Of a DNA stretch of 64,000 nt, positions 26,298-58,917 are shown in pieces. The translations under genes were made by a program, and so were the position numbers. The DNA lies in IMG/VR virus record IMGVR_UViG_3300020123_000428. One strand, given 5' to 3'. Source of the stretch: an uncultured virus (IMG/VR IMGVR_UViG_3300020123_000428) (taxonomy: Duplodnaviria; Heunggongvirae; Uroviricota; Caudoviricetes). Under the pieces are notes generated by a model. It was not told the origin of the DNA. It did no database searches and saw nothing but the letters and a program-made list of their open reading frames with translations. Position 1 is the stretch's first letter, and the number at the start of each line of letters is the position of its first letter.

Positions 26298-27157
26298 GCG
26301 ACCTCGGGACGCGCCCGGCCGACCCGGGACACGTGAGCGACCTCGGGACGCGCCCGGCCGACCCGGGACACGTGCTGCGCGTCGAGCCGGACCCTGCCGC
26401 GCAGGGGCATACTCCACAGATCAGCCCGGAGATTCCGGGACCCGCCGATGATGCGTGTGGCGTGGCTGGTTCCGTTGAGGTCACGATCGCCAAGCCGCCG
26501 GCGACCCGCCGGCTCGACCTTGCCAGTGGCCAGAACGTCCGCGTGGGATTCGAAGGCGTCGACATCTGGCCGGGCGCGCAGCACGTCGTGAACCTCCAGC
26601 AGTACCCCTGGCCGTTCGAGGACGAGAGCGTGCTCGAGGTCAACTGCAGCCACTACATCGAGCACATCCCGATGGAGATGATCGTCGGTCGCCGCTGCAG
26701 GTGCTGCGGCGGCCACGGCATTGTGCGCTTCGAGGGGTCGGCGGAGCGATGCTCACACTGCCAAGATGGGGTGCAGGCATGGCCTGCCAAGGACGCCCTC
26801 TTCGCATTCTTCGACGAGTGCTACCGCATCCTGGTGCCCGACGGCTGGCTCCACGTAGTGGTGCCGGCGCACCGCTCGGACCGGGCGTTCCAGGACCCGA
26901 CGCACCGGAGGTTCATCACCGCGCAGACCTTCGCGTACATGAACCAGGAGTGGCGGCGGATCAACCGGCTCGACCACTACAACGTCGACTGCAACTTCGT
27001 GGGCAACGCCAACCCGGTGGTGGACCAGACACTGACCCTGCGGCACCCCGACGTCGCCCAGCAGATGATCCAGCGCAACTGGAACACCGTGATCGACTGG
27101 ACCGCCAGCATGCAGAAGAAGCCCCGCATGACGGTCAAGGTGTTCACGTCGCCATGA
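26294..27157 (+). CDS. class I SAM-dependent methyltransferase-like protein with Zn-finger insertion
   Basis: LDLASG, WPFEDESV, SHYIEH, ECYRILVPDG, DPTH; true start may be downstream of 26441. Confidence 0.7.
   Translation: MSDLGTRPADPGHVSDLGTRPADPGHVLRVEPDPAAQGHTPQISPEIPGPADDACGVAGSVEVTIAKPPATRRLDLASGQNVRVGFEGVDIWPGAQHVVNLQQYPWPFEDESVLEVNCSHYIEHIPMEMIVGRRCRCCGGHGIVRFEGSAERCSHCQDGVQAWPAKDALFAFFDECYRILVPDGWLHVVVPAHRSDRAFQDPTHRRFITAQTFAYMNQEWRRINRLDHYNVDCNFVGNANPVVDQTLTLRHPDVAQQMIQRNWNTVIDWTASMQKKPRMTVKVFTSP
26295..26441 (+). repeat. 39-bp tandem duplication and three GCCCGG-N5-CCGGGAC hairpins
   Basis: 26295-26333 equals 26334-26372; hairpins at 26313-26330, 26352-26369, 26424-26441. Confidence 0.7.
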
Positions 27158-27315
27158 ACGTCTCGCACCACAAGCCCGCCGCGCGCGGCGTCAACCAGCT
27201 CATGTACGTGGGCGACGATGCGGCGATCGAGAGCGCGACGGCGAGCGGGTGGTCCACCCCGGTGAAGGTGGCGCTGGCGGCGGCGCTGGCGTACCTGCTC
27301 CTGGGGCGTCGGTGA
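27154..27315 (+). CDS. small membrane virion-type protein
   Basis: MYVGDD; C-terminal TM + RR. Confidence 0.45.
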   Translation: MNVSHHKPAARGVNQLMYVGDDAAIESATASGWSTPVKVALAAALAYLLLGRR

Positions 27316-27827
27316 AGCGCCTTCCGATCCGCTACATGGCGGCGACCGACACGTCGCCCGCGGGGATCCTCGCGCTGGCGTACCTGCCGGCGCTCCTGCG
27401 CATCGCGCCGGTGCGGGTCGGGTCGATCTCGGGGGGCCTGAGCGGACGCTGGGAGGGCTACGCCGCGCTCCTGGGGACGCCGCTGGCGACCGAGTACGTC
27501 AACGTGGTGTGCTGTGCGCCGGACCGCTGGACCTGGGTGCAGCGCGTCACCATCCCGAACCGGCCGGTCAACGGGGTCCCACAGCCGGCCGAGGTCGCGG
27601 AGAAGCGCCAGGAGCTCTACACGAGCGGCGTGCGCAACGTCCTCCTGACCCAGGTGCCTCCGGCGCCCCTGACCCGGGAGCAGCGCCAGACCGCGCTCCG
27701 CTACGAGGCGGTGGTGTCGCCGGATGCCCACACGCGACGTCTCTGGGACGGCCTCCATCCGGTGGTGTTCATGGTATCTGTTCCAGTCACGGATCACGCG
27801 GCGCTGCGCGCGGCGCTGGTCCCGTAG
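27312..27827 (+). CDS. hypothetical protein
   Basis: GTGA coupling; GC3-rich. Confidence 0.5.
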   Translation: MKRLPIRYMAATDTSPAGILALAYLPALLRIAPVRVGSISGGLSGRWEGYAALLGTPLATEYVNVVCCAPDRWTWVQRVTIPNRPVNGVPQPAEVAEKRQELYTSGVRNVLLTQVPPAPLTREQRQTALRYEAVVSPDAHTRRLWDGLHPVVFMVSVPVTDHAALRAALVP

Positions 27828-27843
27828 CAAAGGGGTTCTCGAG

Positions 27844-28155
27844 ATGGTTCCAGACATCGGTGACATCGTTCTGTTTCACTTCGAAGACCCGTACGTTCCG
27901 GCCGGGCGCTTACGAGTGCGACCCGCGATGGTGATCGCTGTGGGTACGCCAGCCGGACCCGGGGTTGGCTGGCCACTCGATCTCCAAGTGTTCTTCCACG
28001 TGGATGATCACATCTGGTGGCAGCACAGCGTTGTGGTCGTGCCATCGCCGTGTGTGACCGGAGTGCCGGCCCACCTCGAGCCGGACCTGGAGCACGGGCA
28101 GGTTCATCGCCTGCCGATACGCCACGGTACGTGGACGCATCGGAAGGGGGGCTGA
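27844..28155 (+). CDS. hypothetical protein (SH3-like start)
   Basis: PDIGDIVLF...RPAMVI..V pattern. Confidence 0.45.
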   Translation: MVPDIGDIVLFHFEDPYVPAGRLRVRPAMVIAVGTPAGPGVGWPLDLQVFFHVDDHIWWQHSVVVVPSPCVTGVPAHLEPDLEHGQVHRLPIRHGTWTHRKGG

Positions 28156-28157
28156 CC

Positions 28158-28679
28158 GTGACGACACCGACACCCAGTATCCCAGGAGCGCCGACGACCA
28201 CGATCTACCTCGCGTCGAGCTGGCGCAATCCGTATCACAGCGTGGTCCTCGCCGAACTACGCAAGCGGCGGTGCGAGGTCTACGACTTCAAGACCGACGG
28301 CCACGCGATGGCGTGGAAGGACTTGGATCCGGAACTTGCCACTGACCTGACCGCGGATCGGTTGCAACGGGTGCTGCAACTTCCCGGATCCGACCGAGCC
28401 TTCGCAGCCGACATGAACGCGATGAAGTGGGCCGACGCGTGCGTGCTGCTGCTGCCGTGCGGACTGTCGGCGCATCTCGAGGCCGGGTGGTTCGCGGGCA
28501 AGGGGAAGCCGGTGGCGGTGCTGGCTCCGGAGCTTCGCGAGCCCGAGCTCATGTACAAGATGTTCGAGCGGAACGCTGTATTTCGCGATGGCGCGGTCAC
28601 CCCGATCTTCGGGCTAATCGATCAGGTAGCGGACTACCTGAGCAGCGCCCATCTGCGGAACCGGACGTGGGACCCGTGA
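28158..28679 (+). CDS. nucleoside 2-deoxyribosyltransferase-like protein
   Basis: IYLASSWRN...DMNAMKWADACVLL...SAHLEAGW..GKGKPV. Confidence 0.7.
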   Translation: MTTPTPSIPGAPTTTIYLASSWRNPYHSVVLAELRKRRCEVYDFKTDGHAMAWKDLDPELATDLTADRLQRVLQLPGSDRAFAADMNAMKWADACVLLLPCGLSAHLEAGWFAGKGKPVAVLAPELREPELMYKMFERNAVFRDGAVTPIFGLIDQVADYLSSAHLRNRTWDP

Positions 28680-28891
28680 GCGTCGCCGGGTGGCTACTCG
28701 CCATCGGGATGGTGGTCGGCATCGTTGCCCGGGTGCCGAACTGCGACATCGGTCTACTCGTGGTCATCGCGGTCGCGATGGTGTGGCCGCCAGCGACGAC
28801 GGGCGCCGAGCAGTACCCAACGGCTGATGCTGCCGGGCGCGACGGGCGCCGCTCGACGGTGGACCGATCCTGCGCCTGAAGGAGATACGAG

Positions 28892-29626
28892 ATGATGACG
28901 AGCGACGAATGCAAGGAACGACTGGAGACCGCAGCGCGCGCGGTGACCGACATGCTGGATGATCTGGGCAATGCGAGCCCGGACGGCCAGGATGCCAGGA
29001 TGGACATCTTCAGGGCAGCGTATCGATCTCTGTCCGAGGACGACAAGGCCCGCATCACCACCTTGTTCCGAAGGGGTAGCCTCGCAGTGCTGAGCGATGC
29101 GCTTATCGGCAACAAGGCGATCGCTCAGGCCGCGTTCCGCGACCTCGCGGGGATCGCTCGGCGCATCGATCAGTCCCCCGACAAGGAGCACGCGGTCGAC
29201 GAGTTGCTCGATGCCGCCAACGAGCTCGGCGCCGACGACCAGAAGGAACTGCTCAAGGTACTTGAGTTCATCGGCATCCTCCGCGTGATGAAGAACGATC
29301 CGGAGGAGGCATCAGCCGACCCGGAGCCCCACAGCAAGACCGTGCTGCGCCGCCTGTTCGCTGAGAACCCATCCCCGCTCCCCAACCAGGCGCCGGCACT
29401 CGAGTGCGCGGTGATGTTCGCCGGAGGCGGTACCAGCGAGGGCGCGCTCTCGGAGACGCCGGATGGCGGCCTCCGCATGCTGACGCCCATGACGCCCCAG
29501 GCCCCCGGCCTCCGGCCCGGCAAGGTGATGATGATCGAGAAGTTCTTCGCCTACGAGGACATCGTCGCGGTCGCGGTCCGCCGCGAGGTCACCATCGAGG
29601 CGCCCACCCGCATCGTCTCGCACTAG
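28892..29626 (+). CDS. hypothetical protein
   Basis: AAGGAG RBS; 244 aa. Confidence 0.6.
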   Translation: MMTSDECKERLETAARAVTDMLDDLGNASPDGQDARMDIFRAAYRSLSEDDKARITTLFRRGSLAVLSDALIGNKAIAQAAFRDLAGIARRIDQSPDKEHAVDELLDAANELGADDQKELLKVLEFIGILRVMKNDPEEASADPEPHSKTVLRRLFAENPSPLPNQAPALECAVMFAGGGTSEGALSETPDGGLRMLTPMTPQAPGLRPGKVMMIEKFFAYEDIVAVAVRREVTIEAPTRIVSH

Positions 29627-29805
29627 GCGTGCCGCGGGCAGCGGTCGTCCCGCCAGCCCAGCGCGTCGACCGCCGCCCGGAGCGCCCGCCGCGCCTCATC
29701 GGTCGAGATCACCTCGGAGGCCGGCCGCGCGCCCACGGCGATCTCGATCCCGACTCCCTCGGCGCAGCCGGGCTCGTGGCAGTACACGATCACCCGGACG
29801 TTCAC
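29623..29805 (-). CDS. small Zn-finger protein
   Basis: CHEPGC...CPRH. Confidence 0.45.
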   Translation of the reverse strand: MNVRVIVYCHEPGCAEGVGIEIAVGARPASEVISTDEARRALRAAVDALGWRDDRCPRHA

Positions 29806-30221: not shown

Positions 30222-30272
30222 GGGCGAATCATACTTGACTTGCGACCACCGCCGCGTCTATTTTTGTGTCAC

Positions 30273-30753: not shown

Positions 30754-30756
30754 CCG

Positions 30757-31173: not shown

Positions 31174-31176
31174 CCG

Positions 31177-31697: not shown

Positions 31698-31735
31698 CAT
31701 CGTGGCCGGGTCTCGCCGTTCGTAACCCCAAGGGG

Positions 31736-32883: not shown

Positions 32884-32916
32884 GTCGGGCCAAAGGAGCG
32901 GACGTCCGCCAGACGC

Positions 32917-33170
32917 GCTGTGGCGCCACCACAGACCCTGAACAGTGAAGGAGGAGATCCAATGCGCACCTAGAGCCCGTCACCGATGAGATTGAGTCGC
33001 TCCCAACTCCCACAGAGCGACGGACAAAGGCAGGCGGCACGGCGCCCTATCCGTGCAAACAAGGGTTGGCTCCGGACCCACCCACGGAGACGCGTCGGGC
33101 GCGTTATGGAGACCCGGAGAAGCAAGCGTACGATAGCCGGAGACGAGACCGAGATGAGACGGAGACATGT
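32917..33170 (+). CRISPR. degenerate hairpin-repeat mini-array
   Basis: GCTGTGG-N5-CCACAGAC 32917-32936; GCTCCG-N10-CGGAGAC 33069-33091; further GGAGAC half-repeats. Confidence 0.4.
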
Positions 33171-33685: not shown

Positions 33686-33713
33686 GCGCTTCAAGCGGAA
33701 AGGAGTTCAAGCG

Positions 33714-34019: not shown

Positions 34020-34021
34020 CC

Positions 34022-34258: not shown

Positions 34259-34261
34259 GCG

Positions 34262-38711: not shown

Positions 38712-39070
38712 GCTCGCCCCCGGGCGAGACACGATGACAAGGCCTTCACCTCCAAAGGAGAGCCGCATGCTGACCCGACATGTCGACCGCCCTCGCCTCC
38801 GCCCCTGCATCGCCTGCATCCTCGTCGCGCTGCTCTGCACGGCCGTCGCGGGTGCGATGTGTGCGTCGATCGACTACGTAGCGCGGATGGCGGTGACCGA
38901 CTATGGTCAGTCGCTGGGGACCATCAACACGTGCACGCTGCCGGTGGTCGACAAGGAATAGCTCCGGATCCGGAGACCGTCGCGCGCCCCGAGCGATCGC
39001 GGACAGCAGGCAACGGAGACAACTGCACGAACGACTCAGGGGCTGGCTCGGTGCCCACGCAAACCGACGA
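38712..39070 (+). CRISPR. dispersed hairpin repeats
   Basis: GCTCGCCCCCGGGCGAGAC 38712-38730; GCTCCGGATCCGGAGAC 38961-38977; half repeat CGGAGAC 39014-39020. Confidence 0.45.
38734..38961 (+). CDS. small membrane protein
   Basis: hydrophobic segment; start may be 38767. Confidence 0.35.
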   Translation: MTRPSPPKESRMLTRHVDRPRLRPCIACILVALLCTAVAGAMCASIDYVARMAVTDYGQSLGTINTCTLPVVDKE

Positions 39071-39097: not shown

Positions 39098-41002
39098 ATG
39101 GGTAAGAAGACCGAACGTATCGCCGAGCTCGAGGAGACACTCGCATCCTCCCGGATGCTGATCTTGAGCATCGCGCAGGATCTCAACATCGCCGCGCTGC
39201 TGCCGCATGACTGGCGTCAGCACCCGTTCCAGGTGGCGCGGCTGTTTACTCGGGCGATCGGGATCCGGCCAGCGCCGGGCCCCGTCGCTCCGACGAGCTC
39301 GGCGGACGCCGAGACCGAAGCCGATCCTGTGTCGCGCTCGGCGCCGGCCGAGACGGGTACGACTAGACCGCGCTCGGCGTTCCCCGAGACGCCTGAGCTC
39401 CCGTCGTTCGACGCCATGGTCGACGACCAGGTGGCGAAGATCGAGCGAGCCAAGGCGCCGGTCGGCGCGAACGCCGTGGTCATCTCCGACCCAGGCGCCG
39501 AAGTACCGCTGGAGATGATGCATACGCTGCGCAACGTCATCGATGCGGTCGCCCAGGAGCTCGGCATCGAGCACGAAGGGCAGGCCCCGTTCGACGTGCT
39601 GTACGCCTGCTACAACGAGATCCGGCGGATAAAGAACCCCGACGGTACGATCGATGCCGACACCGGAGATGAGGCGCTGTCCAAGGGGGATTCCCTCGCC
39701 GAGGCGGTGGCGCACGGCCAGCGCACCGAGAACACGCTGCGGGAGCAGCTCGAGGCGTCGCGCACCCTGGTGAACCGGATCGCCGGCGCGCTGCAGATCA
39801 GCACGTGGTCACCGGATGGCGCAGAACTGCTTGAGCGCGTCCAGGCGTGGTCGACGGCACGCACGATCCTCCGGCGGTGGCACCGCTCGATCACGATCGA
39901 GGTCTCCGCCGATAGCAACGTGCGGGTCCCGGCGAGGCACGTACGGATCAGCCTGGCCGAGTTGATCGATCGGATGGATGGGCCCGGCTCGGCGGACCGA
40001 GACTTCAGGACGATGAAGACCGAGACCACCACAGCAACGTCCGCGACGAGCTCGGCGCCGGCGGAGACGGCAGCCCAAACAGCGACGACGTCCACGGACA
40101 AGGCGTGCCAGGTCTGCGCGCGTTTGGAGGCGCACCCGGACCACCGGGATCGCGGGATGACCAACTATCACCAGTTCGTGTCGAGCTCGGCGCCGGCCGA
40201 GACTGTTGCAGCGCCCGAGACAACCACAGCGGCAGCATCGCCCAGCGTCCTGACGGCGTGCCGGGTGTGCGGCATGCCCGAGGGGTTCTTCGATCACCAT
40301 GGGCTGGGGCCGATCGCCCACCCGTTCGTCCCCGGCGGCCAGTTCGCACCGGTGACCACGACGCGCTCGGCGCCGGCCGAGACGGTTGACACTCCGTCGG
40401 CGGCTCCAGGGATGCCGGTCGGCCTGCTCCTCGATGAGGAGAAGATCCAGCTTCTGCAGTGGCTGTCCGACCACTCCACGATGATCGGGGGGGCCAGCGG
40501 GCCGCGCGTCGTGCTTGACGACGTGATCCGGGCAGCCAAGATCGCGCTCGCCAGCGCCAAGCACCCGGACGACCCCGAGGAGCGGATGAAGCGGATCCGC
40601 GAGCGCATGAGCCGCCTGAAGCACGGACCGAAGGGCACCGGGCAACCTGGCTCGTGCGAGCCCGACTGCCTGAAGTGCGAGCTCGACCGCGAACTGAAAG
40701 CGCTGCAACTGGGACGCGCGGCGCCGATCCAGTGCATTCGCTTCACCGTGAGCCTCATCCGCGAGGCCGAACTCCCCGGCCAGTGGGTGTCCATCTTCCA
40801 TGAGCTCAACCTCAAGTCGGGCGGCGTGACGCCGCAACGCGCCCTCCTGGCAGGGGCTGCCGCCGTGCGGATGCTGGTGGACCACCGTATGACCCAGGAC
40901 AAGATGTTGGCCCACGAGGTGTTCGCGGCGCTGAAGGCCCAGGGCGGGTTCCGGGGCTTGTCGGACCGGATGATCCTGGCCGACGACAAGGAGCAGGGCT
41001 GA
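39098..41002 (+). CDS. large mosaic protein with SAPAET-type repeats
   Basis: AAGGAG RBS; TGATG-coupled to the Cas12m-like gene; CxxC...H motifs. Confidence 0.65.
   Translation: MGKKTERIAELEETLASSRMLILSIAQDLNIAALLPHDWRQHPFQVARLFTRAIGIRPAPGPVAPTSSADAETEADPVSRSAPAETGTTRPRSAFPETPELPSFDAMVDDQVAKIERAKAPVGANAVVISDPGAEVPLEMMHTLRNVIDAVAQELGIEHEGQAPFDVLYACYNEIRRIKNPDGTIDADTGDEALSKGDSLAEAVAHGQRTENTLREQLEASRTLVNRIAGALQISTWSPDGAELLERVQAWSTARTILRRWHRSITIEVSADSNVRVPARHVRISLAELIDRMDGPGSADRDFRTMKTETTTATSATSSAPAETAAQTATTSTDKACQVCARLEAHPDHRDRGMTNYHQFVSSSAPAETVAAPETTTAAASPSVLTACRVCGMPEGFFDHHGLGPIAHPFVPGGQFAPVTTTRSAPAETVDTPSAAPGMPVGLLLDEEKIQLLQWLSDHSTMIGGASGPRVVLDDVIRAAKIALASAKHPDDPEERMKRIRERMSRLKHGPKGTGQPGSCEPDCLKCELDRELKALQLGRAAPIQCIRFTVSLIREAELPGQWVSIFHELNLKSGGVTPQRALLAGAAAVRMLVDHRMTQDKMLAHEVFAALKAQGGFRGLSDRMILADDKEQG
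39297..39390 (+). CRISPR. intragenic three-repeat mini-array
   Basis: 19-nt GCTCGG-N6-CCGAGAC at 39297, 39336, 39372; spacers 20 and 17 nt. Confidence 0.55.
39987..40383 (+). CRISPR. intragenic hairpin repeats
   Basis: repeats at 39987-40003, 40050-40068, 40185-40203, 40365-40383; half repeats at 40020 and 40215. Confidence 0.5.
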
Positions 41003-42927
41003 TGTCGGTCCGCGTCTACGAGTACGGTCTGCGCGCGCCCACCTTCAACGCCGATCTGGTGGACGAGCAGATCTTCAAGGCCCACCGGTACCGCAACCTC
41101 CTGACCGAGATCGAGCAAGCGCGGCGCGTGGCCGTGCGGCAGATCATGAGCGCGCACCCCGACATGGTCCCGCTCGATGAGGAACTCCGGGTCCTGAACG
41201 AGCAGATCGAGGCCGCGCGGCAGGTCATCATGAGCGCTCGCAAGGCGACCCGGTCCCGCTCGGAGACCGCCGAGCAGCGCGCCCAGGTCCGCGAGCTCAC
41301 CGCCAAGGCCAAGGGGTTGCGGGAGCAGATCAAGGGCATCCGCAAGGCGGTGGCGGAGGACACCGCGATCCGCGAGGCGCTCGATCGCGCGGACGAGGAG
41401 TCGGAGGAGAAGATCCGCCAAGCCCGCGCGGTGTGTGGCGTGTACTGGGGGACCTACCTCCTGCAGGAGGCGGCGGCGCGGCAGGCTCGCCAGGAGCGCA
41501 TGCCGCCCAAGTTCCAGCGCTACCGCGGCGAGGGCCGGGTGTCGGTGCAGCTCCAGAAGGGCCTCGAGCTGGCGGACCTCTGGGGGACCGACACCCAGAT
41601 CCGCATCGAGCCGGTGGCCGAGGCCGCCCATGATCCGCTCACCCGCCGCGGCGATCGCCGGCGGCTCGCCCGCACCAACGTCATGATCCGGGTCGGCTCG
41701 GACAAGGGCAAGCCGATCTGGGCCACGTGGCCGATGATCTACCATCGCCCGCTGCCCAAGGGCGCGGTCCTGAAGGTCGCCACGGTCAGCCGACGTCGGC
41801 GCAACTGCTCGACCTGGGACTGGCGCCTCCACGTCACCGTGGACACCAGCGCGTGCGAGGCGCGCCCGGTGCCGGCAGGCGGCGTGGTCGCCCTGAACCT
41901 GGGCTTCTGCATGCGTCCCGGTGGCGGCGTCCGTGCCGGCTACATGGTCGGCAGTGATGGCGAGGAGCGGGAGATCTTGGTCAACAAGTCCGACGCCTAC
42001 CGCGGTCGGGACCTCTCCGTGGAGGAGCAAGCCCGGCTGGGCGAGTGGATCCCCAACGGCTTCGCCAAGGCGGAGAGCATCCAGTCGATCCGCGACAAGA
42101 ACCTCGACCGGTTGCGCGCCGCCCTCCTGGCGTGGCGCGGCCGCGCCGAGCTCGACATCGGGGCGATCACCGAGATGATCCAGGAGTTCCGGCGGGGCCC
42201 CCGCGACAACCCCCGCACCTGGAACTGGGGGGACCCGCCCCCGCCGGTGATCGCGCCCGAGATCCCGGAGTGGCTCATGACGACGACGCAGGCCATGCAC
42301 GCCTGGCGATCCCCCGACCGCTTCCGGTCCCTGTACCGCGCCTGGGGCCGCCAGCGCTTCGAGGGCGACGGGGTGGGCTACGAGTGCCTGGGTGCGTGGG
42401 TCGAGCGGGACGAGCACCTGGAGCACTACGAGGCCGGTCTGCGGCGCTCCGCACTCCTGGACCGCCGCGAGTCCTACCGCATCCTGGCCGCCCAGATGGC
42501 CCGCACCTACGCCACCCTGGTCATCGACGACACCGATCTGCGCGCCTTCCAGCGCAGCCCCTCCCCCGAGAGTGGGGATGTCGAGTTCAACGCCGTGAAG
42601 CGGAACCAGCGCCTCGCCGCCGGCAGCGAGCTACGAGGCGTCCTCATGAACGCCTTCGGGCCCGGCCGGACGGTCAAGCTCTCGGCCAAGGATGTCACCC
42701 GCCGCTGCTACCACTGCGGCACCATCAACCAGTGGGAGCGATCCACCGCCGACCGCCTCCACACCTGCAGCGAGTGCAAGGTCCAGTGGGACCAGGACGC
42801 CAACGCCTGCCGGAACCTCCTGCGAGAGCACGAGCACACCAAGGACGCACCCGCAGCGCCGGCCCCGGACAAGAAGCCCAGCCGCTCTGAGCGCCTCCTG
42901 GAGGCCAAGCGCCGGCGGGCCGCGTGA
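41002..42927 (+). CDS. cas12m: Cas12m-like (type V-M) / TnpB-superfamily RNA-guided DNA-binding protein with non-canonical RuvC
   Basis: 641 aa; long N-terminal coiled coil; YWGTY, RYRGEGRVSVQLQ, YHRPLP, VALNLGF (RuvC-I, N for D), WRSPDRF..L..AW, LVIDDTDL (RuvC-II, D for E), CYHC/CSEC Zn finger, WDQDANA (RuvC-III); blocks match my recollection of MmCas12m. Confidence 0.8.
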   Translation: MSVRVYEYGLRAPTFNADLVDEQIFKAHRYRNLLTEIEQARRVAVRQIMSAHPDMVPLDEELRVLNEQIEAARQVIMSARKATRSRSETAEQRAQVRELTAKAKGLREQIKGIRKAVAEDTAIREALDRADEESEEKIRQARAVCGVYWGTYLLQEAAARQARQERMPPKFQRYRGEGRVSVQLQKGLELADLWGTDTQIRIEPVAEAAHDPLTRRGDRRRLARTNVMIRVGSDKGKPIWATWPMIYHRPLPKGAVLKVATVSRRRRNCSTWDWRLHVTVDTSACEARPVPAGGVVALNLGFCMRPGGGVRAGYMVGSDGEEREILVNKSDAYRGRDLSVEEQARLGEWIPNGFAKAESIQSIRDKNLDRLRAALLAWRGRAELDIGAITEMIQEFRRGPRDNPRTWNWGDPPPPVIAPEIPEWLMTTTQAMHAWRSPDRFRSLYRAWGRQRFEGDGVGYECLGAWVERDEHLEHYEAGLRRSALLDRRESYRILAAQMARTYATLVIDDTDLRAFQRSPSPESGDVEFNAVKRNQRLAAGSELRGVLMNAFGPGRTVKLSAKDVTRRCYHCGTINQWERSTADRLHTCSECKVQWDQDANACRNLLREHEHTKDAPAAPAPDKKPSRSERLLEAKRRRAA

Positions 42928-43366: not shown

Positions 43367-43506
43367 GCTCGTCGCCGACGAGACCAGCTGTCGTCCCTGG
43401 TTCCGCTCGGGGATGCCCGAGACGAGTGGGAAGTTGTGGTCAGGATCCGCTCGGGGATCGCCGAGGACAGGTCACAGCCGAGACGCGTTCATCAACTGCC
43501 CGAGAC
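43367..43506 (+). CRISPR. degenerate mini-array downstream of cas12m-like gene
   Basis: hairpins 43367-43384, 43405-43423, 43449-43468; half repeats CCGAGAC at 43478 and 43500; spacers 20 and 25 nt. Confidence 0.6.
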
Positions 43507-43531
43507 CCGTGCTCTCAGTCCCAAAGAGGTT

Positions 43532-43911: not shown

Positions 43912-44030
43912 GGTCCAGCTCGGTGGGTTCGACCGAGACGCGCTCTCGTCAACCATCGGGTTCCGCTCGGGGAATCCCGAGACGCCAGAGCAAGGGATGT
44001 CCGGTCCAGCCCAGTGGCAGAACCTGGGAC
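43912..44030 (+). CRISPR. three-repeat mini-array
   Basis: GGTYCM + hairpin + AC at 43912-43939, 43959-43983, 44003-44030; two 19-nt spacers. Confidence 0.65.
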
Positions 44031-44109: not shown

Positions 44110-44514
44110 ATGCTCACCGCCGAACAACTCCATGACCTGCACCGCCGCGCTGATGCGGTGACCCTGCCCAGTGCCGGGCCGTTCTGTGCTCGGACCGCGG
44201 CTCGACTGCTCTCGGGGACCCACTTCCTGACCAGCGCGTGGGGCCCGCCAGCCATGCAGGCCGCGTGTGCGCGTCTCGCTCAGGGAGAGATCACCCAGAC
44301 CGACGAGTTGCCCATCAGCATCCTGTCGGCGGCGGTCCGCGGGCTCCTCCTGGTGTTCTCGGTGGAGCACGTCCGCGCCGCGCTGGCGTTCTGGGCCAGC
44401 GAGAACGATCCCGCCGTCTGGCGCGCGGTCACCGAGGATGGATCGGCATGGCTCGACGTGACCCGTCGAGACGGTGGTGGCGATGCGCAGCGGCTAGCTC
44501 GGCAGAACGGCTGA
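44110..44514 (+). CDS. hypothetical protein
   Basis: AAGGAG RBS; 3' end overlaps hairpin repeats. Confidence 0.5.
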   Translation: MLTAEQLHDLHRRADAVTLPSAGPFCARTAARLLSGTHFLTSAWGPPAMQAACARLAQGEITQTDELPISILSAAVRGLLLVFSVEHVRAALAFWASENDPAVWRAVTEDGSAWLDVTRRDGGGDAQRLARQNG

Positions 44515-44517
44515 GAC
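44451..44517 (+). CRISPR. two-repeat mini-array
   Basis: GCTCGACG-N5-CGTCGAGAC 44451-44472; 24-nt spacer; GCTCGGC-N6-GCTGAGAC 44497-44517. Confidence 0.5.
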
Positions 44518-45499: not shown

Positions 45500-45594
45500 G
45501 TCTCGGGTGGTGGTTAGTTCCGTTGGCGTCTCGGAGCACACGACGCCGTCGTCTCGGTTCCGTCCCATCGGCCGTAGTCTCGGCGTCCCCGAGC
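45500..45594 (-). CRISPR. one full hairpin followed by three CCGAGAC half-repeats
   Basis: GTCTCGG on + strand at 45500, 45528, 45551, 45577; spacers 16-21 nt. Confidence 0.55.
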
Positions 45595-45960: not shown

Positions 45961-46011
45961 GTCTCCGGGTTCGGCCTCGGAGCGCGGTCTGTCGTCTCGG
46001 ACGCGCCGAGC
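45961..46011 (-). CRISPR. two hairpin repeats
   Basis: 45961-45983 and 45994-46011. Confidence 0.4.
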
Positions 46012-47237: not shown

Positions 47238-47406
47238 GTCTCGGTTCACCCGAGCCGGTTCTCAACCAATACCGGCATCGATAGCGTCTCGGTTCAGCCG
47301 AGCCGATCTCGACAAGAGTCCCGGCGATCCGGCGATCCGGGCCAGTCTCAACCCAGCGCGCTTGTCTCGGACGCAATCCCGAGCCCATCTCGGAAAACGC
47401 CGAGCG
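47238..47406 (-). CRISPR. four-to-five-repeat mini-array
   Basis: hairpins 47238-47256, 47286-47304, 47318-47343, 47364-47385 and degenerate 47387-47406; the four main units are each preceded by GAGA. Confidence 0.6.
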
Positions 47407-47408
47407 CG

Positions 47409-48507: not shown

Positions 48508-48662
48508 GTCCCGGCCTCCCCGGGCAGGTCCCCTCGTAGTTCATGAGCCGTCTCGGTCGCCCGAGCGTCGCTAGTTCCCCGTCCCCGCTTGGGGGGCTCA
48601 TCTTGAGCGCCGCCAGCACACGTCTCGCAGGCAGGGCACACCCGTCTCGCCGCTTCGCGAGC
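48508..48662 (-). CRISPR. mini-array with covarying hairpins
   Basis: hairpins 48508-48525, 48550-48566, 48581-48597, 48644-48662; half repeat 48622-48627; spacers 14-24 nt. Confidence 0.6.
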
Positions 48663-55387: not shown

Positions 55388-55419
55388 CTCGGATCTCCGT
55401 GTCCCTTTGTACCTACCAA

Positions 55420-55860
55420 TCAGTCGAGGTCCAACAGCGCGAATCGCACGCGGGAGGCGTCCTGATCTTCCACGCCATCGACCGACTCCGGGGGTGATGT
55501 GGTCAGTCGGCGCACCTCGGCGAGCGCGGCCTCCAACTCGGTGGCCAACTGTCGGGCGCGGGCCTGCGCGGCCGTCCGCGCGGCGGCATGGCGCTCGGCC
55601 TCATCGGTGAGGCGGCGGATGCGGGCCTGGGCGGAGGCCTCCGCGGCGCGGGCCTCGTGGGCGGCCACGCGGGAGCGCTGCGCCTCTCCGCGAGACCGCT
55701 CGATCTCGGCGCGGGTCTCGGCGAGCGACTGCTCCAGCTTTGCGCGGATCGTGGGGGCGCCGCTGGCGGCGCACGCCTTGTGCAGCACCTCCGTCTCCGC
55801 CACCACGACCTGGTTCCGAGCCACGATGGGCTGGAGGCAGATGGCGCAGCGGGCTCCCAT
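55420..55860 (-). CDS. Zn-finger + coiled-coil protein
   Basis: CAIC...HKAC. Confidence 0.5.
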   Translation of the reverse strand: MGARCAICLQPIVARNQVVVAETEVLHKACAASGAPTIRAKLEQSLAETRAEIERSRGEAQRSRVAAHEARAAEASAQARIRRLTDEAERHAAARTAAQARARQLATELEAALAEVRRLTTSPPESVDGVEDQDASRVRFALLDLD

Positions 55861-55915
55861 GGCGGCATAGGATACGTCTCGCTCGGTCTCGTGGTCTACC
55901 TCACGAGATAGTCCG

Positions 55916-56182
55916 TCAGAACTCGCTGCAGAACCAATCACCGAGGTTGCAGTCCACCAGAGGCGTGGAGACGCCGTCGATGTCGACCTTGGCGTTCTGG
56001 ACCTCCTGATCGGTCATCTCCTCCCAGGAGATGTCGCCGTCCGCCTTGCACTCGTCGTACGACTTGCCCCACTGACCGAACTCGATCTGGGCGTCTCGCA
56101 AGATCTGCTCGGCGTGGGCCATGTCTTGGGCCACCACCACGTAGTCGGCGCCATCGTCCATCGCGAAGTATCGCTTGATCAC
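55916..56182 (-). CDS. acidic hypothetical protein
   Basis: AAGGAG RBS. Confidence 0.5.
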   Translation of the reverse strand: MIKRYFAMDDGADYVVVAQDMAHAEQILRDAQIEFGQWGKSYDECKADGDISWEEMTDQEVQNAKVDIDGVSTPLVDCNLGDWFCSEF

Positions 56183-56652
56183 GGGATCTCCTTTTCGTGT
56201 CGAGCTATCTCATCTTCGGTGACCTCTCCCCAGATCGGATCGCCCGCGGACATCGGCCACATCACGCGCAGCGTGGTCGCGTCCATCTGCTGCGTGCCGT
56301 GCTCGGTCGCGACCAGAGCGACCCAGCGGTCGGCTCCCATCCGGTGGACCTTCGTGTTGCCGGTGTTCGGGGAGACCGTGACGCCGTACTGCACCGGCAC
56401 GAACCGGACCGACAACAGGGTCCCGTAGAAGGTCTTGCTGGCGTTCAGGTCGGGATAGTACCGCGCCAGGATCTCCTCGCGTCGATCGGGGGGCGCCATC
56501 GCCATATCCCGCCTGAGTCCTTCGATCGCAGGGTTGCGATCACCGGATCGAGTTCTCGCCATGTCATCATCGACACGGCGTCTCGCCGCCGCTCGGCGTT
56601 CCTCATCAGGTACCGACCACTCGACACGCATCGGGTGCATCATCGCTGACAC
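56179..56652 (-). CDS. hypothetical protein
   Basis: operon fit. Confidence 0.45.
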   Translation of the reverse strand: MSAMMHPMRVEWSVPDEERRAAARRRVDDDMARTRSGDRNPAIEGLRRDMAMAPPDRREEILARYYPDLNASKTFYGTLLSVRFVPVQYGVTVSPNTGNTKVHRMGADRWVALVATEHGTQQMDATTLRVMWPMSAGDPIWGEVTEDEIARHEKEIP

Positions 56653-56933
56653 CCCACGGTGCGGTCATCCACCACGATCGGATGCTGTCCCCCGGTGCAG
56701 TGCAGCCGGCCGTACAGGCACCCGCTGGGCACCACCGACCGATCCGGTCGTCCGTACGTCCCGTCGTAGTCCGGATCGCCAACGGGGTTCTGGGTGCACA
56801 GGAACTCGCCGGACGGGCGGATCCCGTTGTTGTGCCAGTGGCCAGGGCACGCCGCGTGGTGCGGACGGAGCACCTGCGCCGCGATCGCCAGCAGCACCCC
56901 GATGATCACGTAGTACCAGTTCGAGCAGTCCAT
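56640..56933 (-). CDS. Cys-rich secreted/membrane protein
   Basis: N-terminal TM; TGATG coupling. Confidence 0.45.
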   Translation of the reverse strand: MDCSNWYYVIIGVLLAIAAQVLRPHHAACPGHWHNNGIRPSGEFLCTQNPVGDPDYDGTYGRPDRSVVPSGCLYGRLHCTGGQHPIVVDDRTVGCQR

Positions 56934-57499
56934 CAGGTTCCTGCCGGCTGGTTGTTGGCGAGCGCGCGGAGGCGATCGGCTACCTCGGGGCAGTCGATCT
57001 GGTCGCACGCCTCGCGCAGCCCAGCTTCAAGAGCGGAGACCCGGTTGTTCCGGATGGCCAGGTTGTCATCCAGCCATTGGACAAACTCCGACAGCGCCCC
57101 AGAGACGGGCGGATGAGATCCGGCGAGGGCGAGGGCGCGGATCGCATCAATGCCCCGGACCTCCGCCAGCGCCGCCTCGAGTTGGTCGGCGAGGTCGCGG
57201 AGGTTGTTGCGCATCCACGCTATGCCACGCGCATCAGCACCACCGTGCGGACCGTTCCCGGTGGTTGCGAAGCACGTGGCGTCAAGTTCGATTGGCTTGT
57301 CCGATGCCGCAACCGCCACGACGTGCATGGGTTGACCAGAGAACTCGGCGTGCGCCTCGCGAAACTGGATCAACTGATCGTCGAGTTCGTCCGAGCGGTA
57401 GAGCCCAGCGACTGCTGTACCTGTGGTCATCGCCTCGTCGTGCTTCTTGGCCCCGCTCACCAGCCGAGCGCAGAGCGCGGGGTCGAGCTTGGCGGTCAC
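56933..57499 (-). CDS. hypothetical protein
   Basis: GAGGA RBS. Confidence 0.5.
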   Translation of the reverse strand: MTAKLDPALCARLVSGAKKHDEAMTTGTAVAGLYRSDELDDQLIQFREAHAEFSGQPMHVVAVAASDKPIELDATCFATTGNGPHGGADARGIAWMRNNLRDLADQLEAALAEVRGIDAIRALALAGSHPPVSGALSEFVQWLDDNLAIRNNRVSALEAGLREACDQIDCPEVADRLRALANNQPAGT

Positions 57500-57852
57500 T
57501 GGTCGTCCTCTCGGTCCGCGGTCGCGGCGCTGTATTCGCTCGCCGGTCTCCAGTGGCTCATGTTCGACTTGCCAGGGTCATGGCCGTGTGTGCGAAATGC
57601 GCCGCACACCAAGCATACCTGGGTCTGATAACTGCCCCACGCGCGTGGAGCGTCTCTACCCCGTTCGGTGCGAGCGTGATCGCACTTGGCGTGCGCAATC
57701 GCGTCCAGCGCCGATGTCAAATCGTCGCGTAACGACTTGGCATTGTCGACTCGAAGCACGTGATCTTCGCCGCCCAGACGAACCATCACCCGAGGCCCAC
57801 GTCCGGTGTCGTGCCATGTCACAGGCCCATGATCGTCCGGCGGATTCGTCAT
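57496..57852 (-). CDS. hypothetical protein
   Basis: overlapping start/stop. Confidence 0.45.
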   Translation of the reverse strand: MTNPPDDHGPVTWHDTGRGPRVMVRLGGEDHVLRVDNAKSLRDDLTSALDAIAHAKCDHARTERGRDAPRAWGSYQTQVCLVCGAFRTHGHDPGKSNMSHWRPASEYSAATADREDDQ

Positions 57853-58136
57853 CGGCGAACCTTGGCCAGAGCGGCACCATAGGCATCCTGACGACGGATC
57901 AGATCGGCATCAGCGTTGGCGATCTCTGCGGCACCGCGGTCGGTCAGGGCACGCTGGCGGTGCGCCTCGAAGCGAACACGGGCAGCGACCCGCTCTTGTT
58001 CTCGCAGTGCCAGCGCCGCCGCCGCGATCTCCAGGAGCACGGGCGCAGCTGATGCGAGGTCCGCGTCGTGGTTCGCGCCCTCGTCTCGACACAGCCGCTG
58101 CAACTCCGCGATGCTCGGTCGGTCGTCGGCGGTCAT
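57849..58136 (-). CDS. hypothetical protein
   Basis: overlapping start/stop. Confidence 0.4.
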   Translation of the reverse strand: MTADDRPSIAELQRLCRDEGANHDADLASAAPVLLEIAAAALALREQERVAARVRFEAHRQRALTDRGAAEIANADADLIRRQDAYGAALAKVRR

Positions 58137-58324
58137 GGGGCCTTGAACCCCTGCGCCTGCAGCCACTCGACCATCACGTAAATCAGACCGCGCGCGGTCT
58201 CCGATGCAACGTAGCGCTGATGCTGGTCCTGCTGCGCGAACCTATCGACCAATTCGCGCTCCTTGAGCCGGATCTTGGCGAGCAGTGCATCGGCGTCCTC
58301 GTCCTTGCACACGATGACCTTCAT
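58133..58324 (-). CDS. hypothetical protein
   Basis: operon fit. Confidence 0.4.
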   Translation of the reverse strand: MKVIVCKDEDADALLAKIRLKERELVDRFAQQDQHQRYVASETARGLIYVMVEWLQAQGFKAP

Positions 58325-58325
58325 C

Positions 58326-58838
58326 TCACCCCTCCCCAGTCGGCAGGGTGGTGGAGGCGGTCCGGCGCAACTCCTCGCGGATATCCATCCAGAGCTTGCC
58401 CAGCACGTTCTTGCCGTCCCGGTTCGGGCCCCAGCCCCAGAAGTCGTCGCGCCACGAGTTCTCGATGAGATCGCGGTCGCCGGTCTCGATCAGCTTGCGC
58501 CGGACGTACTCGTGCTGCTTCACCTTCGCGATGAGGATTTCGCGCATGATGTCGACCTTCACCGCGTCCCAGTCCTTGTGGCGCTGGTCCTTGTGGCGCT
58601 GGGCGATCTGGTATGCCTCGTGTGCGGACGGGGCCATCAGGATCTCCCACCGGATATCACGGCGCCCCGAGGGGAATTTCTCCCAGTGATACACCGCCTC
58701 GGCAGTGTCGAATCGGTGACCTCCCCAATTCACCGTGAACGCGCTGAAGTTCGAGAGCACGTAGAACTCCGGCTCGTAGAAGAACACCTGCTCCTGGGTG
58801 TCGAGCCCGTGCGTTGCCTGTCCCGGTGATATCGCCAT
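58326..58838 (-). CDS. NADAR family protein
   Basis: FYVLSNFS...TAEAVYHWEKF...WDAVKVDIM...LIENS..DDFWG...GKNVLGKLWMDIR. Confidence 0.85.
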   Translation of the reverse strand: MAISPGQATHGLDTQEQVFFYEPEFYVLSNFSAFTVNWGGHRFDTAEAVYHWEKFPSGRRDIRWEILMAPSAHEAYQIAQRHKDQRHKDWDAVKVDIMREILIAKVKQHEYVRRKLIETGDRDLIENSWRDDFWGWGPNRDGKNVLGKLWMDIREELRRTASTTLPTGEG

Positions 58839-58875
58839 CTCGTGATCTCCTTCCGTGGTTGCTCGTCGATCTTCG

Positions 58876-58917
58876 GTCTCGTGGATCGCCAGGCAGCAAC
58901 GTCTCGTTCCACCGAGC
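58876..58917 (-). CRISPR. hairpin repeat + 19-nt spacer + half repeat
   Basis: GCTCG-N6-CGAGAC 58901-58917; CGAGAC 58876-58881. Confidence 0.45.

Follow-up and report, generated by a model that had tools for sequence, protein, structure and literature searches.

Gene content around cas12m

The window analysed here is a stretch of 64,000 nt, probably part of a phage of about 80 kb, and it belongs to a family of phages of that size. On its plus strand, an ORF at 41002..42927 encodes a protein of 641 aa, for which the top PDB matches were Cas12m (23vw, E = 3.8e-58) and Cas12m2 (8hhl/8hio, E = 2e-20); the match to the Pfam family Cas12f1-like_TNB (25.3 bits) was slightly below the cut-off. Its RuvC triad, taken from an alignment of 31 sequences, was N299, D (in the motif VIDD) and D599, and the C-terminus contained a zinc ribbon. 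Residues H248-R249 aligned with H269-R270 of Cas12m2, which are described as contacting the crRNA scaffold (PMC10442227). By these matches to solved structures the ORF is a Cas12m homolog, and the hairpins lie around a genuine Cas12m gene.

Directly 5' of cas12m lies an ORF of 634 aa (39098..41002, plus strand), the stop of which abuts the cas12m start and which contains seven hairpin units in frame. G-C at third positions was 0.75–0.95 throughout the frame, and the N-terminal 250 aa or so had homologous genes in two related phages that lack cas12m (G003 and G004). Its homolog at locus L116 contained five hairpins, in other frames and encoding other peptides. Because the hairpins of these two upstream genes differ in both frame and peptide, selection appears to act on the nucleic acid.

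Location of the hairpin units

The hairpins had the form G-C(stem)-loop-(stem)G-AC and were mostly located 3' of stop codons, the others being between cistrons or inside ORFs. On the plus strand, three GCCCGG..CCGGGAC units occurred at the 5' end of ORF 26294-27157 (26313-26330, 26352-26369 and 26424-26441; 22.5–23.6 bits), the first two being the products of an exact tandem duplication of 39 bp. Single intergenic units were found at 32917..32936 (GCTGTGG..CCACAGAC; 17.4 bits and E = 0.12 with the covariance model R1, below) and 33069..33091 (GCTCCG..CGGAGAC, with a 10-nt loop; 15.4 bits with R1), while two units (33596-33619 and 33668-33685) spanned the stop of ORF 33167-33649 and preceded the ribosome-binding site of the next gene. 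A single unit at 38712..38730 lay between the stop at 38660 and the ATG at 38767, at distances of 52 and 36 nt respectively, and another, at 38961..38977, began on the final G of the TAG closing ORF 38767-38961. Within ORF 39098-41002, three units at 39297..39390 (gaps of 20 and 17 nt) encoded SSADAET, RSAPAET and RSAFPET; the remaining four were at 39987-40003, 40050-40068 (with one G-G mismatch), 40185-40203 and 40365-40383. A mini-array between two genes (43367..43511) comprised two units (43367-43384 and 43405-43423), a degenerate third at approximately 43446-43471 and then two lone CCGAGAC half-sites. The mini-array at 43918..44030, 15 nt 3' of the stop at 43903, had three units with gaps of 25 nt and 25 nt, and a 5' tag (GGTCCA or GGTTCC) ahead of units. 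Two units at 44451..44517 lay at the end of the last plus-strand gene, the second overlapping its TAG stop.

On the minus strand, a single unit at 45577..45594 preceded three lone (C)CGAGAC half-sites, and two units at 45961..46011 were separated by 10 nt. Five units formed a mini-array at 47238..47408 (47384-47408, which was degenerate, 47364-47384, 47318-47342, 47286-47303 and 47238-47255), directly 3' of the stop of ORF 47409-47780; hairpins occupied the same position 3' of the homologous gene in the related phages G002 and G005. Three units at 48508..48662 began 10 nt past the stop codon of ORF 48672-49109 and were followed by a conserved promoter-like element (TTGnnn-17/18-TAnnnT) and the leader of ORF 47793-48407. 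A variant unit at 55886..55907 (CTCGTG..CACGAGAC), just 3' of a TGA stop, had T rather than G as its 5' flank, and a weak unit at 58898-58920 (13.7 bits, E = 0.85) had a stem of only 4 bp; with these two imperfect cases at 55.9 and 58.9 kb included, every position listed in the preliminary description was recovered. Outlying units were identified at 59161-59178 (GCCCAG..CTGGGAC, minus strand, inside ORF 58930-60027; 18.9 bits) and at 62635..62651 (GCTCGCTCCGGCGAGAC, plus strand; 18.5 bits, E = 0.066), the latter sense within a plus-strand integrase gene.

Strand bias and structural conservation

The motif scan required G, a C-initiated Watson-Crick stem of at least 5 bp, a loop of 3–10 and then G-AC; regional counts were compared with 100 dinucleotide shuffles. 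Across the whole window it returned 34 hairpins on the plus strand and 20 on the minus. In the interval 26.3–59.2 kb, perfect hairpins numbered 34 in gene sense, against about 6 expected, and three in antisense. The earlier figure of over 30 hairpins was thus correct as a raw count and becomes nearer 28 with background subtracted, some of the 34 probably being chance matches. From 26,300 to 44,550 there were 23 hairpins on the plus strand (shuffles 3.09 ± 1.94, maximum 8) and three on the minus (2.63 ± 1.77); from 44,550 to 59,200 there were 11 on the minus strand (2.67 ± 1.9, 11 also being reached in one shuffle) and none on the plus. The structural arm (1–26,300) was not enriched, with 8 and 4 hairpins on the two strands versus 5.4 and 5.0 in shuffles. 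All 15 instances of the narrow motif GCTCGG..CCGAGAC, nine on the plus strand (39297-43965) and six on the minus (45594-48566), were sense to local genes.

Twenty-two units were used to build a covariance model (R1), which was applied to both strands with filters off. At E ≤ 0.1 there were 27 matches, all of them on the sense strand: 21 seeds and six new sites (26349, 40047, 43915, 47384-47408, 59158 and 62632). Both the strand-biased excess over shuffled sequence and the reversal of orientation with gene direction, as originally put forward, were evident in the regional counts and in the model matches alike. G, C and G-A-C were invariant among the 22 aligned units, and both sides changed at 3 of 5 stem pairs (9 cells); the covariation score of 0.289 (shuffles 0.100 ± 0.026) was matched by none of 500 shuffles. 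The figure of 98% pairing is circular, since units were selected for pairing. Folded alone, 32/32 units gave the expected hairpin (dG -6.3 to -11.7 kcal/mol), and whole clusters folded no better than shuffles (z = -0.95 and -0.65). Gaps between neighbouring units were 10–30 nt with two outliers, 48 and 54 (n = 14), and the sequences between units were unique, much as first described.

Since all 27 matches are sense and the G...AC flanks are asymmetric, the units would appear to function as RNA. The same observations speak against repeats that act as DNA, either mobile palindromes (REP/PATE-like) or sites for a DNA-binding protein, which would otherwise suit dispersed units that vary in copy number among relatives and lie in frame inside genes. 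The binding protein could be that encoded by a zinc-ribbon ORF at 35070-35456, which has the same phyletic pattern as cas12m (4/4 versus 0/3) and might be the true partner of the hairpins in its stead; however, its family is widespread among viruses generally. Moreover, a G-U-compatible change was tolerated among relatives and neither a Y1 transposase nor a RAYT was seen among 59 proteins scanned. An explanation of this kind was considered very unlikely.

Resemblance to type V-M repeats

In the crRNA of Cas12m2, G(-23) is described as pairing with A(-2), and a C...G stem of 6 bp adjoins the guide (PMC10442227). Seven canonical arrays beside Cas12m homologs had 36-nt repeats with a period of about 72, each repeat consisting of a 12-nt tag and a 24-nt G-C(6 bp)-loop-(6 bp)G-AC hairpin. 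The published crRNA and these arrays agree with the preliminary description, in which the MmCas12m repeat ends in the same hairpin shape. The canonical format was found in 53 of 118 loci, and arrays of the N-type clade (L096, L100 and L103) had the CTCGG/CCGAG stem seen in the window. The window hairpins are CRISPR-like and shaped as the 3' handle of a V-M repeat is. Twelve of the 118 loci had clusters in a short format (period ≤ 55, hairpin ≤ 21 nt), eight of them with N at RuvC-I, and in G002 a canonical array decayed into shorter, variable units, with dispersed short units in addition. The 64-kb window contained no array of 36-nt repeats with spacers of about 36 nt; one could lie elsewhere in the phage, beyond the window.

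Hairpins in related phages

The association between hairpins and cas12m was evaluated in eight genomes (the window and G001–G007). All five with cas12m were enriched in hairpins relative to shuffles: three strongly and in clusters (window, 54 vs. 23.2 ± 3.4; G001, 96 vs. 26.4 ± 5.5; G002, 66 vs. 24.6 ± 4.6), and two modestly (z about 3), with solitary units (G005, 37 vs. 25.3 ± 4.2; G006, 39 vs. 24.2 ± 4.6). Hairpins in relatives lacking the effector had been named in advance as the case against a connection; they were at background in all three equally related genomes without cas12m (G003, 26 vs. 20.9 ± 4.1; G004, 25 vs. 20.6 ± 3.7; G007, 21 vs. 24.6 ± 5.0). The window-trained model identified 40 matches in G001 at E ≤ 1, one in G002, three in G005, two in G006, one in G003 and none in G004 or G007. 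Phylogenetically, the window was sister to the pair G003 and G004, which lack cas12m (support 96/99), and at least two gains or losses of cas12m were required. At the intergenic site 5' of the homolog of ORF 47793-48407 there were three units in the window, five in G001 and at least nine in G002, and none in G003 or G004. G005 and G006 are 90.7% identical, and six units orthologous between them showed one stem change, a C-to-T producing G-U, and about 15 loop changes; at the level of sequence, the stems show purifying selection. One intragenic 'unit' of G005 was not conserved in G006.

Placement just 3' of stops is equally expected of RNA 3'-end stabilisers or terminators. GC-rich RNA elements independent of Cas12m (terminators or barriers to 3' exonucleases), resembling the handle by chance or common descent, would account for the stable stems and for the many units 0–50 nt past a stop, ahead of the next promoter or ribosome-binding site. 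However, hairpins were absent at equivalent sites in the three equally related phages without cas12m, and units occur inside genes too. No U-tract follows the hairpins, and a terminator scan of 38–49.5 kb produced three sites (3.1 expected), none on the sense strand of any unit. Tandem runs, which reach 14 units in G001, and invariant G...GAC flanks would be unnecessary for such roles, and the explanation seems improbable. The phyletic pattern also bears on Racr-like decoy RNAs, which would titrate a host-encoded Cas12m and so blunt type V-M immunity of the host. Phage mimicry by solitary repeat units is established (PMC10651486) and a high copy number would titrate well, but the hairpins occur only in phages with a cas12m of their own and were missing from 3/3 siblings that would face the same host. 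They are also partial, clustered and adjoin the cas gene, whereas the repeats selected in PMC10651486 are solitary, full-length and cas-unlinked; decoys were thus given very little credence.

Spacer sequences

The preliminary description viewed the hairpins as a distributed guide repertoire, conserved in structure. The units would then be crRNA genes, with the downstream 17–20 nt guiding Cas12m in trans to host or rival-phage DNA and silencing the genes bound. The uniqueness of inter-unit sequences is in keeping with this, as are the gaps of the best mini-arrays (14–30 nt, mostly 20–25). The last 6 nt or so of several gaps resemble a 5' tag, in which only G at -5 is conserved (1.2 bit in the window, 1.5 bit in the G002 repeat tag); the gaps minus the tag are about 14–19 nt, near the 17-bp optimum given in PMC10442227. 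Related leaders gain and lose whole units as arrays do, and canonical arrays are kept in G002 and many other relatives. Against this, no window spacer had a match, whether elsewhere in the window itself or in seven related genomes, 118 related loci or a cultured-phage collection (50,697 phage records), which is weak evidence. The modal gap in G001, a close relative, was 13–14 nt, below the 17-bp heteroduplex reported for Cas12m2 (PMC10442227), and some gaps were as short as 4–10 nt. Some short spacers were conserved among diverged phages. Seven units are in frame in a real protein gene and several others directly precede ribosome-binding sites, such that their 'spacers' would be constrained by other functions and a guide would not be free to track its target. 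A role in cis, through RNA binding, processing or regulation, would suit this placement at least as well. The hairpins kept their CRISPR-like character; their use as a distributed guide repertoire, with many spacers short or constrained and no spacer target, was unsupported in its original form and was thought unlikely.

Proposed function

Most probably, the hairpins are minimal repeat units cognate to Cas12m that are carried within phage transcripts. That these minimal V-M units are mainly cis-regulatory, acting via the phage's own Cas12m, is the interpretation we favour, with reasonable rather than strong confidence. Each unit would represent the repeat's 3' handle, 17–24 nt long and made up of G, C-U-C with a variable stem, the loop, a complementary stem ending G-A-G, and A-C; the 12-nt 5' tag would have been lost and the loop shortened from about 10 to 4–6 nt. 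Approximately 30 units, sense only, would be carried by the early and middle transcripts of a soil phage of about 80 kb that encodes Cas12m, as tandem mini-arrays right 3' of stops, as singles in the gaps between cistrons and as inserts that keep the frame within protein linkers. The N-D-D triad suggests that the phage Cas12m binds DNA and does not cut it. It would recognise the handle in nascent phage RNA and probably cut just 5' of it, each cut releasing a handle with the next 10–30 nt, held by Cas12m. In outcome, Cas12m would process and occupy the polycistronic RNAs of the phage itself, that of the cas12m operon among them. Better-formed mini-arrays (43.4, 43.9 and 47.3 kb, to which the 14–30-nt gaps belong) may also yield working short guides.

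Comparison with known systems

The reference systems of type V-M, MmCas12m2 and GoCas12m (PMC10442227, PMC11013384), share with the window the effector family, with a non-canonical RuvC triad that is linked there to binding without cutting, and the geometry of the handle, with its G-A closing pair, C...G stem and A-C before the guide. They differ in having an array of 36-nt repeats and spacers of about 36 nt, where the window has only the 3' handle, with a shortened loop, in some 30 units over about 33 kb of both gene arms, placed in 3' UTRs, between cistrons and within ORFs at gaps of 10–30 nt. The myxophage MV-1 locus, claimed as the first phage Cas12m (bioRxiv 10.64898/2026.09.14.751636), resembles the window in being without adaptation genes.

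Racrs (PMC10651486) are likewise repeat-like phage hairpins outside arrays, the RNA of which is bound by a Cas protein, as is proposed for the window. As described there, however, a Racr is a nearly full-length copy of a host repeat, occurs singly and is unlinked to cas genes, whereas the window units are partial, clustered, present in dozens of copies and strictly co-occurring with a phage-borne cas12m. The crRNA-like regulatory RNAs (CreA, CreR, crlRNA and viral crlRNAs; bioRxiv 10.1101/2023.03.10.532045, 10.1101/2024.12.27.630466, 10.1101/2024.10.29.618823) consist of degenerate mini-CRISPR units whose spacers are short or match only in part; through them a Cas effector binds DNA and regulates transcription, and the target is not destroyed. 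The passages searched on them make no mention of type V-M. At each locus such units number one or a few, with a promoter target that can be identified and an effector supplied by the host, unlike the present case, with no identifiable target, 30–70 copies per genome and the phage's own effector. Nothing similar was found in print, and some 30 scattered handle hairpins, in place of one tidy array, point to an undescribed viral use of CRISPR parts.

Strand distribution and structure of the hairpin units

The units were delimited by a mechanical scan rule: a G, a perfect stem of ≥5 bp opening with C, a loop of 3–10 nt and then G-AC. Across the whole window this returned 34 matches on the + strand and 20 on the - strand. 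The window has a G+C content of 65–73%; its coding strand is + up to about 44.5 kb and - between 44.57 and ~62 kb, after which comes an integrase on the + strand, and structural-type genes occupy the first 26 kb. Within the + gene arm (26.3–44.55 kb) there were 23 hairpins on the + strand, against 3.1 ± 1.9 expected from 100 dinucleotide shuffles, and three on the - strand. Within the - gene arm (44.55–59.2 kb) there were 11 on the - strand, against 2.7 ± 1.9 expected (1 of 100 shuffles also reached 11), and none on the + strand. No enrichment over shuffles was found in the structural arm. The narrow form, GCTCGG..CCGAGAC, occurred 15 times in the window and was sense in every case. A covariance model of 22 units, run with filters off, gave 27 matches at E ≤ 0.1, all of them sense, including six outside the seed set. 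The strand-biased enrichment over shuffled controls expected from the preliminary description was thus borne out in both arms and by the model. Every site it had listed was recovered, those at 55.9 kb and 58.9 kb being weak variants; the units at 26.3 kb are present, two of them representing one exact 39-bp duplication.

The units were 17–25 nt long with variable stems, and were spread over 33 kb. The G, the C and the G-A-C were invariant across the 22 aligned window units, while three of the five stem pairs showed double-sided changes. When folded singly, all 32 units adopted the structure as drawn; whole clusters were no more stable than their shuffles. Neighbouring units were separated by 10–30 nt, plus two longer gaps (maximum 54 nt), and 23 of the 54 window hairpins had a same-strand neighbour within 80 nt. 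Tandem Repeats Finder identified no canonical array, i.e., near-identical direct repeats of ~36 nt with unique spacers of similar length, within the 64-kb window. Rfam returned no match to the window at gathering thresholds, and no tRNA genes were found there. A 9-bp tandem repeat, CGCCTGGGA, present in 17.6 copies at 32239–32396 (+) within the ORF at 31694–32557, gave false 'hairpins' in loose scans.

Mobile palindromes of the REP/RAYT or IS200/IS605-derived kind would be expected in mixed or inverted orientations and with a Y1 transposase/RAYT partner; all strong matches were sense, and the 59 window proteins scanned included no such Pfam family. Beside full units, solitary (C)CGAGAC 3' half-sites lacking the 5' arm were observed every 20–30 nt, at 43470–43511, 45500–45576 (-) and 48600–48625 (-), and these may be decayed units. 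They were left out of the evidence because the strand bias of the bare motif is not specific to genomes with cas12m: a sense bias of GAGAC was also seen in G003, a related genome without the gene (102 vs 56).

The Cas12m protein and the repeat handle

The ORF at 41002–42927 (+) encodes a protein of 641 aa that matched Cas12m structures in the PDB (23vw, E = 3.8e-58; Cas12m2 8hhl/8hio, E = 2e-20; 23vu, E = 1e-19), the match to 23vw and to Cas12m2 spanning both halves. PHROGs and NCBIfam recognized only a TnpB-like C-terminus. Alignment with 30 homologs placed the RuvC positions at N299 (ALNLG), the D of VIDDTDL and D599 (WDQDANA); in more distant homologs the first position was D or H and the second was E. 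N-D-D and H-D-D variants of Cas12m are listed in PMC11013384, and DNA binding without cleavage was detected in the Cas12m set tested there. H248-R249 of the window protein aligned with H269-R270 of Cas12m2, which make base-specific contacts to the crRNA scaffold according to PMC10442227; across 31 homologs R249 was invariant and H248 was present in at least 90%.

PMC10442227 also describes a Cas12m2 crRNA in which G(-23) forms a non-canonical pair with A(-2), and C(-22)-C(-17) is paired with G(-8)-G(-3). This geometry is exactly the G-C(stem)...(stem)G-A-N shape, adjoining the guide. A Cas12m repeat ending in the shape of the window hairpins had been put forward in the preliminary description, and it was confirmed both by this source and by seven canonical arrays that immediately follow Cas12m homologs in viral contigs (loci L004, L011, L012, L016, L023, L025 and L029). 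The repeats of these arrays comprised a 12-nt tag and a 24-nt G-C(6 bp)-loop-(6 bp)G-AC hairpin, 36 nt in total, with a period of about 72. One spacer of the L011 array (12547–12582) was an inverted copy of the adjoining repeat, with 22-nt reverse matches to many repeats.

Cas12m homologs were surveyed at 118 loci, which were not de-duplicated (for at least 10, one contig is present in two collections). Counted from the survey table, 53 of the 118 had the canonical format; 12 had a short format (period ≤55, hairpins ≤21 nt), eight of these with N at RuvC-I. Canonical arrays within the N-type clade (L096, L100 and L103) had a CTCGG/CCGAG stem, as in the window units. A conserved G five nt upstream of the window units coincided with the tag position most conserved in G002, a related phage with cas12m. 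Short-format clusters with a period of about 40 and hairpins of about 20 nt were observed beside distant, D-type Cas12m homologs in L017 (12371–12536) and L159, and on this account miniaturisation may have arisen more than once.

Hairpins and cas12m in related phages

Megablast of 36–46 kb found no DNA-level similarity to the window in 50,697 phage records, and a single-protein scan of viral contigs, which found no close relative, proved insufficient; relatives were recovered by alignment-based search, and at least nine further contigs of ~80 kb carry homologs. A scan of genome contigs gave only distant MAG matches and no host for the window phage. Four soil metagenome runs contained short, low-depth contigs identical to the window, in which no unit-level polymorphism was seen; no RNA run was found to contain the sequence.

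Seven complete or near-complete IMG/VR records possessed the structural genes of the window. Four carried cas12m (G001, G002, G005 and G006) and three lacked it (G003, G004 and G007), the latter all being 100% complete with terminal repeats. From 100 crude window ORFs, 32 were shared with G001, 42 with G002, 48 with G005, 43 with G003, 46 with G004 and 35 with G007. Hairpin totals were compared with 20 shuffles per genome. Among genomes with cas12m the totals were 54 for the window (shuffles 23.2 ± 3.4), 96 for G001 (26.4 ± 5.5), 66 for G002 (24.6 ± 4.6), 37 for G005 (25.3 ± 4.2) and 39 for G006 (24.2 ± 4.6); without cas12m they were 26 for G003 (20.9 ± 4.1), 25 for G004 (20.6 ± 3.7) and 21 for G007 (24.6 ± 5.0). 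Clustered units numbered 23 in the window, 52 in G001, 28 in G002 and two in each of G005, G006 and the three genomes lacking the gene. The window-trained model made 40 matches in G001, one in G003 and none in G004 or G007; matches were few in the other genomes with cas12m (G002, G005 and G006), which have different stems. The preliminary description had held that the same hairpins in relatives without the effector would count against it; all three such genomes were near shuffle level, in a comparison of eight genomes.

In a nine-protein tree the window was sister to the pair G003 and G004, which lack cas12m (support 96/99), and at least two changes in cas12m presence were needed. N4-type hairpin promoters and stoperator-like sites were rejected, since no phage RNA polymerase occurred among the 59 proteins scanned and the siblings without cas12m lack the hairpins. 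Besides cas12m, the sole window gene with the same presence pattern was a small zinc-ribbon ORF (CxxC...CxxC) at 35070–35456 (+), found in all four relatives with cas12m and in none of the three without. It had no match in a PDB search and belonged to a widespread viral hypothetical family in the Atlas. Tandem repeats of 129/258/387 bp at 20921–22387 (+), within the 1090-aa ORF at 20123–23395, were common to G002, G005 and G006 only. In a 591-aa protein of the structural block, at 17730–19505 (+), Pfam recognized a response-regulator receiver domain (E = 2.2e-7, just above the cut-off), which is unusual in a phage structural region.

Placement and conservation of the units

Most family-type hairpins were intergenic, i.e., 58 of 72 in G001 and 34 of 44 in G002, with two and none antisense, respectively. 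Window units at 38961, 43918, 44497, 47408, 48662 and 55907 started 0–50 nt past a stop codon. An intrinsic terminator would take the form of a GC-rich hairpin followed by a U-run; the units were followed by GAC and mixed sequence without one, and a terminator scan of 38,000–49,500 found three sites against 3.1 ± 2.0 expected, none of them on the sense strand of a unit.

A promoter-like element, TTGnnn-17/18-TAnnnT, preceded a 204-aa gene (window 47793–48407) in all six genomes compared, lying within 48410–48500 (-) in the window and at orthologous sites in G001–G005. The leader next to the start codon was similar in the window, G003 and G004. Between the upstream stop and this element there were three units in the window, five in G001 and at least nine in G002, and none at the same site in G003 and G004, which lack cas12m. 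In G005, a single 24-nt unit followed the stop of the homologous gene and another followed the next gene.

Units also occurred within coding sequence. The ORF at 39098–41002, the stop of which abuts the start of cas12m, had coding-type GC3 throughout, and its first ~250 residues were homologous to genes of G003, G004 and G005. Its seven units all lay in one frame and read as S-A-P-A-E-T-like linkers. The homolog at L116, where Cas12m is 59% identical to that of the window over the 234 residues present, had five units, placed at other linker positions and divided between two frames, which encoded different peptides. Between the two genes the nucleic-acid hairpin is kept, and the peptide is not.

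Between G005 and G006, which are 90.7% identical, the stems and flanks of six orthologous units showed one change (C-to-T, giving a G-U pair) while the loops showed about 15; one in-gene 'unit' in this comparison was not conserved, and is probably a chance match. In five G001-like contigs, the leaders preceding cas12m kept their hairpins, with variable loops, gains or losses of whole units, and some 13-nt spacers in common. A count of G-U against A-C mismatches (9 vs 5) was set aside as not independent, seven of the nine being one inherited variant in the G002 array.

Spacers and potential targets

The sequences following the units were searched for targets and no protospacer was identified; there was no second match for window spacers in the window, the seven related genomes, the 118 loci or the 50,697 phage records. 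Allowing up to three mismatches, window 18-mers gave eight second-site matches for 32 spacers, where about 16 were expected by chance on our own estimate. Comparison of 522 spacers with the related genomes and loci by blastn-short found only self-targets in relatives and partial matches of 20–25/36, treated as chance, and distant blastn of window 43,320–44,110 against phages gave only chance-level matches, in the coding part. A test with 12–16-mer seeds (83 vs 29 for reversed controls at 12 nt) was not used, since repeats of the hairpin arms and duplicates of units confound it. Gaps in G001 peaked at 13–14 nt (13 of 43) and reached down to 4–10 nt; the optimal guide-target duplex given for Cas12m2 in PMC10442227 is 17 bp. 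Sequence downstream of in-gene units, and of units just before an RBS, was constrained. The interpretation in the preliminary description was upheld in part: the hairpins match the V-M handle and lie near cas12m. Its distributed guide repertoire was not supported as stated, the missing spacer matches, the short gaps of G001 and the constrained downstream sequence telling against a pure set of guides. The absence of targets is weak evidence, as the search covered viral sequences rather than the host genome, and 64 kb of a phage that probably has a further 16–20 kb.

Self-matching spacers were found in two arrays of the family. In G002 (loci L044–L045), an array spacer by the hairpin at 18362–18385 (-) matched that phage's own cas12m at 36 of 36 positions (G002:11461–11496), the coding strand being the non-target, a match which suggests that a binding-only effector is autoregulated. 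In L010, the spacers at 12158 and 12308 matched 36/36 at 9126–9161 (+) and 9130–9095 (-), head to head, in the gene upstream of cas12m. Together, these sequence matches suggest that the Cas12m effector family is used on self DNA. The 5' flanks of the self-protospacers were gagg, ctgc and gagg (...ccgagg in G002), unlike the T/C-rich PAMs reported for Cas12m.

Interpretation and comparison with known systems

At least one test counts against each of the terminator, decoy and DNA-palindrome readings. The hairpins are probably Cas12m-cognate minimal repeat units that work as RNA within phage transcripts, a reading considered most likely given their anatomy, the repeat shape common to the family, their co-occurrence with cas12m and conservation specific to the stems. 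A mainly cis role is favoured, in which Cas12m would act on RNA at the borders between cistrons and within its own operon, by binding and processing it; the better mini-arrays may have a trans-guide role. A bolder proposal, which we consider rather unlikely, is that the system is a CRISPR turned inside out, with handles in the phage's own messages turning the following sequence into guides that steer a binding-only Cas12m onto its own DNA or RNA. Sequence past each handle, whether the next promoter, RBS or coding stretch, would become the guide; Cas12m would be loaded co-transcriptionally and aimed at dozens of sites in the phage's own nucleic acid. Phage transcription units would then be timed or insulated by an RNA-programmed switch acting genome-wide, and the self-targeting spacers of G002 (matching its own cas12m) and of L010 (matching the gene upstream of cas12m) would represent the ancestral form of this autoregulation.

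The observations describe a lineage of soil phages of about 80 kb in which the array format is dissolved into 30–70 minimal handle hairpins through their own transcripts, and where hairpin presence follows cas12m through two or more gains or losses. Should Cas12m bind the units, it would be a natural CRISPR effector serving as a viral multi-site RNA-binding or processing and gene-control factor; the units would include the smallest natural Cas12m handle (17–19 nt), of use for compact CRISPRi or base-editor guides, and would form a class of CRISPR-derived elements missed by both array finders and solitary-repeat finders.

No description of dispersed minimal V-M handles in a phage carrying cas12m was found in the full texts searched. 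The published neighbours are canonical Cas12m work, one preprint on a phage Cas12m, RNA anti-CRISPRs (Racrs) and crRNA-like regulators. Published claims of a Cas12m borne by a phage are recent: a single 2026 preprint reports it as the first, with an ordinary 8-spacer array (bioRxiv 10.64898/2026.09.14.751636). Racrs are solitary repeat units, defined in PMC10651486 as having no other repeat within ~100 bp and being unlinked to cas genes; the window units, by contrast, often have close same-strand neighbours and surround cas12m. Racrs are also near full-length, with at least 90% identity to the host repeat, whereas the window units correspond to the 3' half of the family repeat only. The crRNA-like regulators CreR, CreA and crlRNA combine a repeat-like unit with a pseudo-spacer that is partly complementary to the promoter it represses; for such second sites the window 18-mers gave the eight matches noted above, against about 16 estimated by chance. 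A canonical V-M array has regular, near-identical repeats of ~36 nt, whereas the window has units of 17–25 nt with variable stems and gaps of 10–54 nt. Features shared with type V-M are the Cas12m gene, the H-R pair aligned with the scaffold-reading residues of Cas12m2 and the G-A-closed C...G stem-loop at the 3' end of the repeat.
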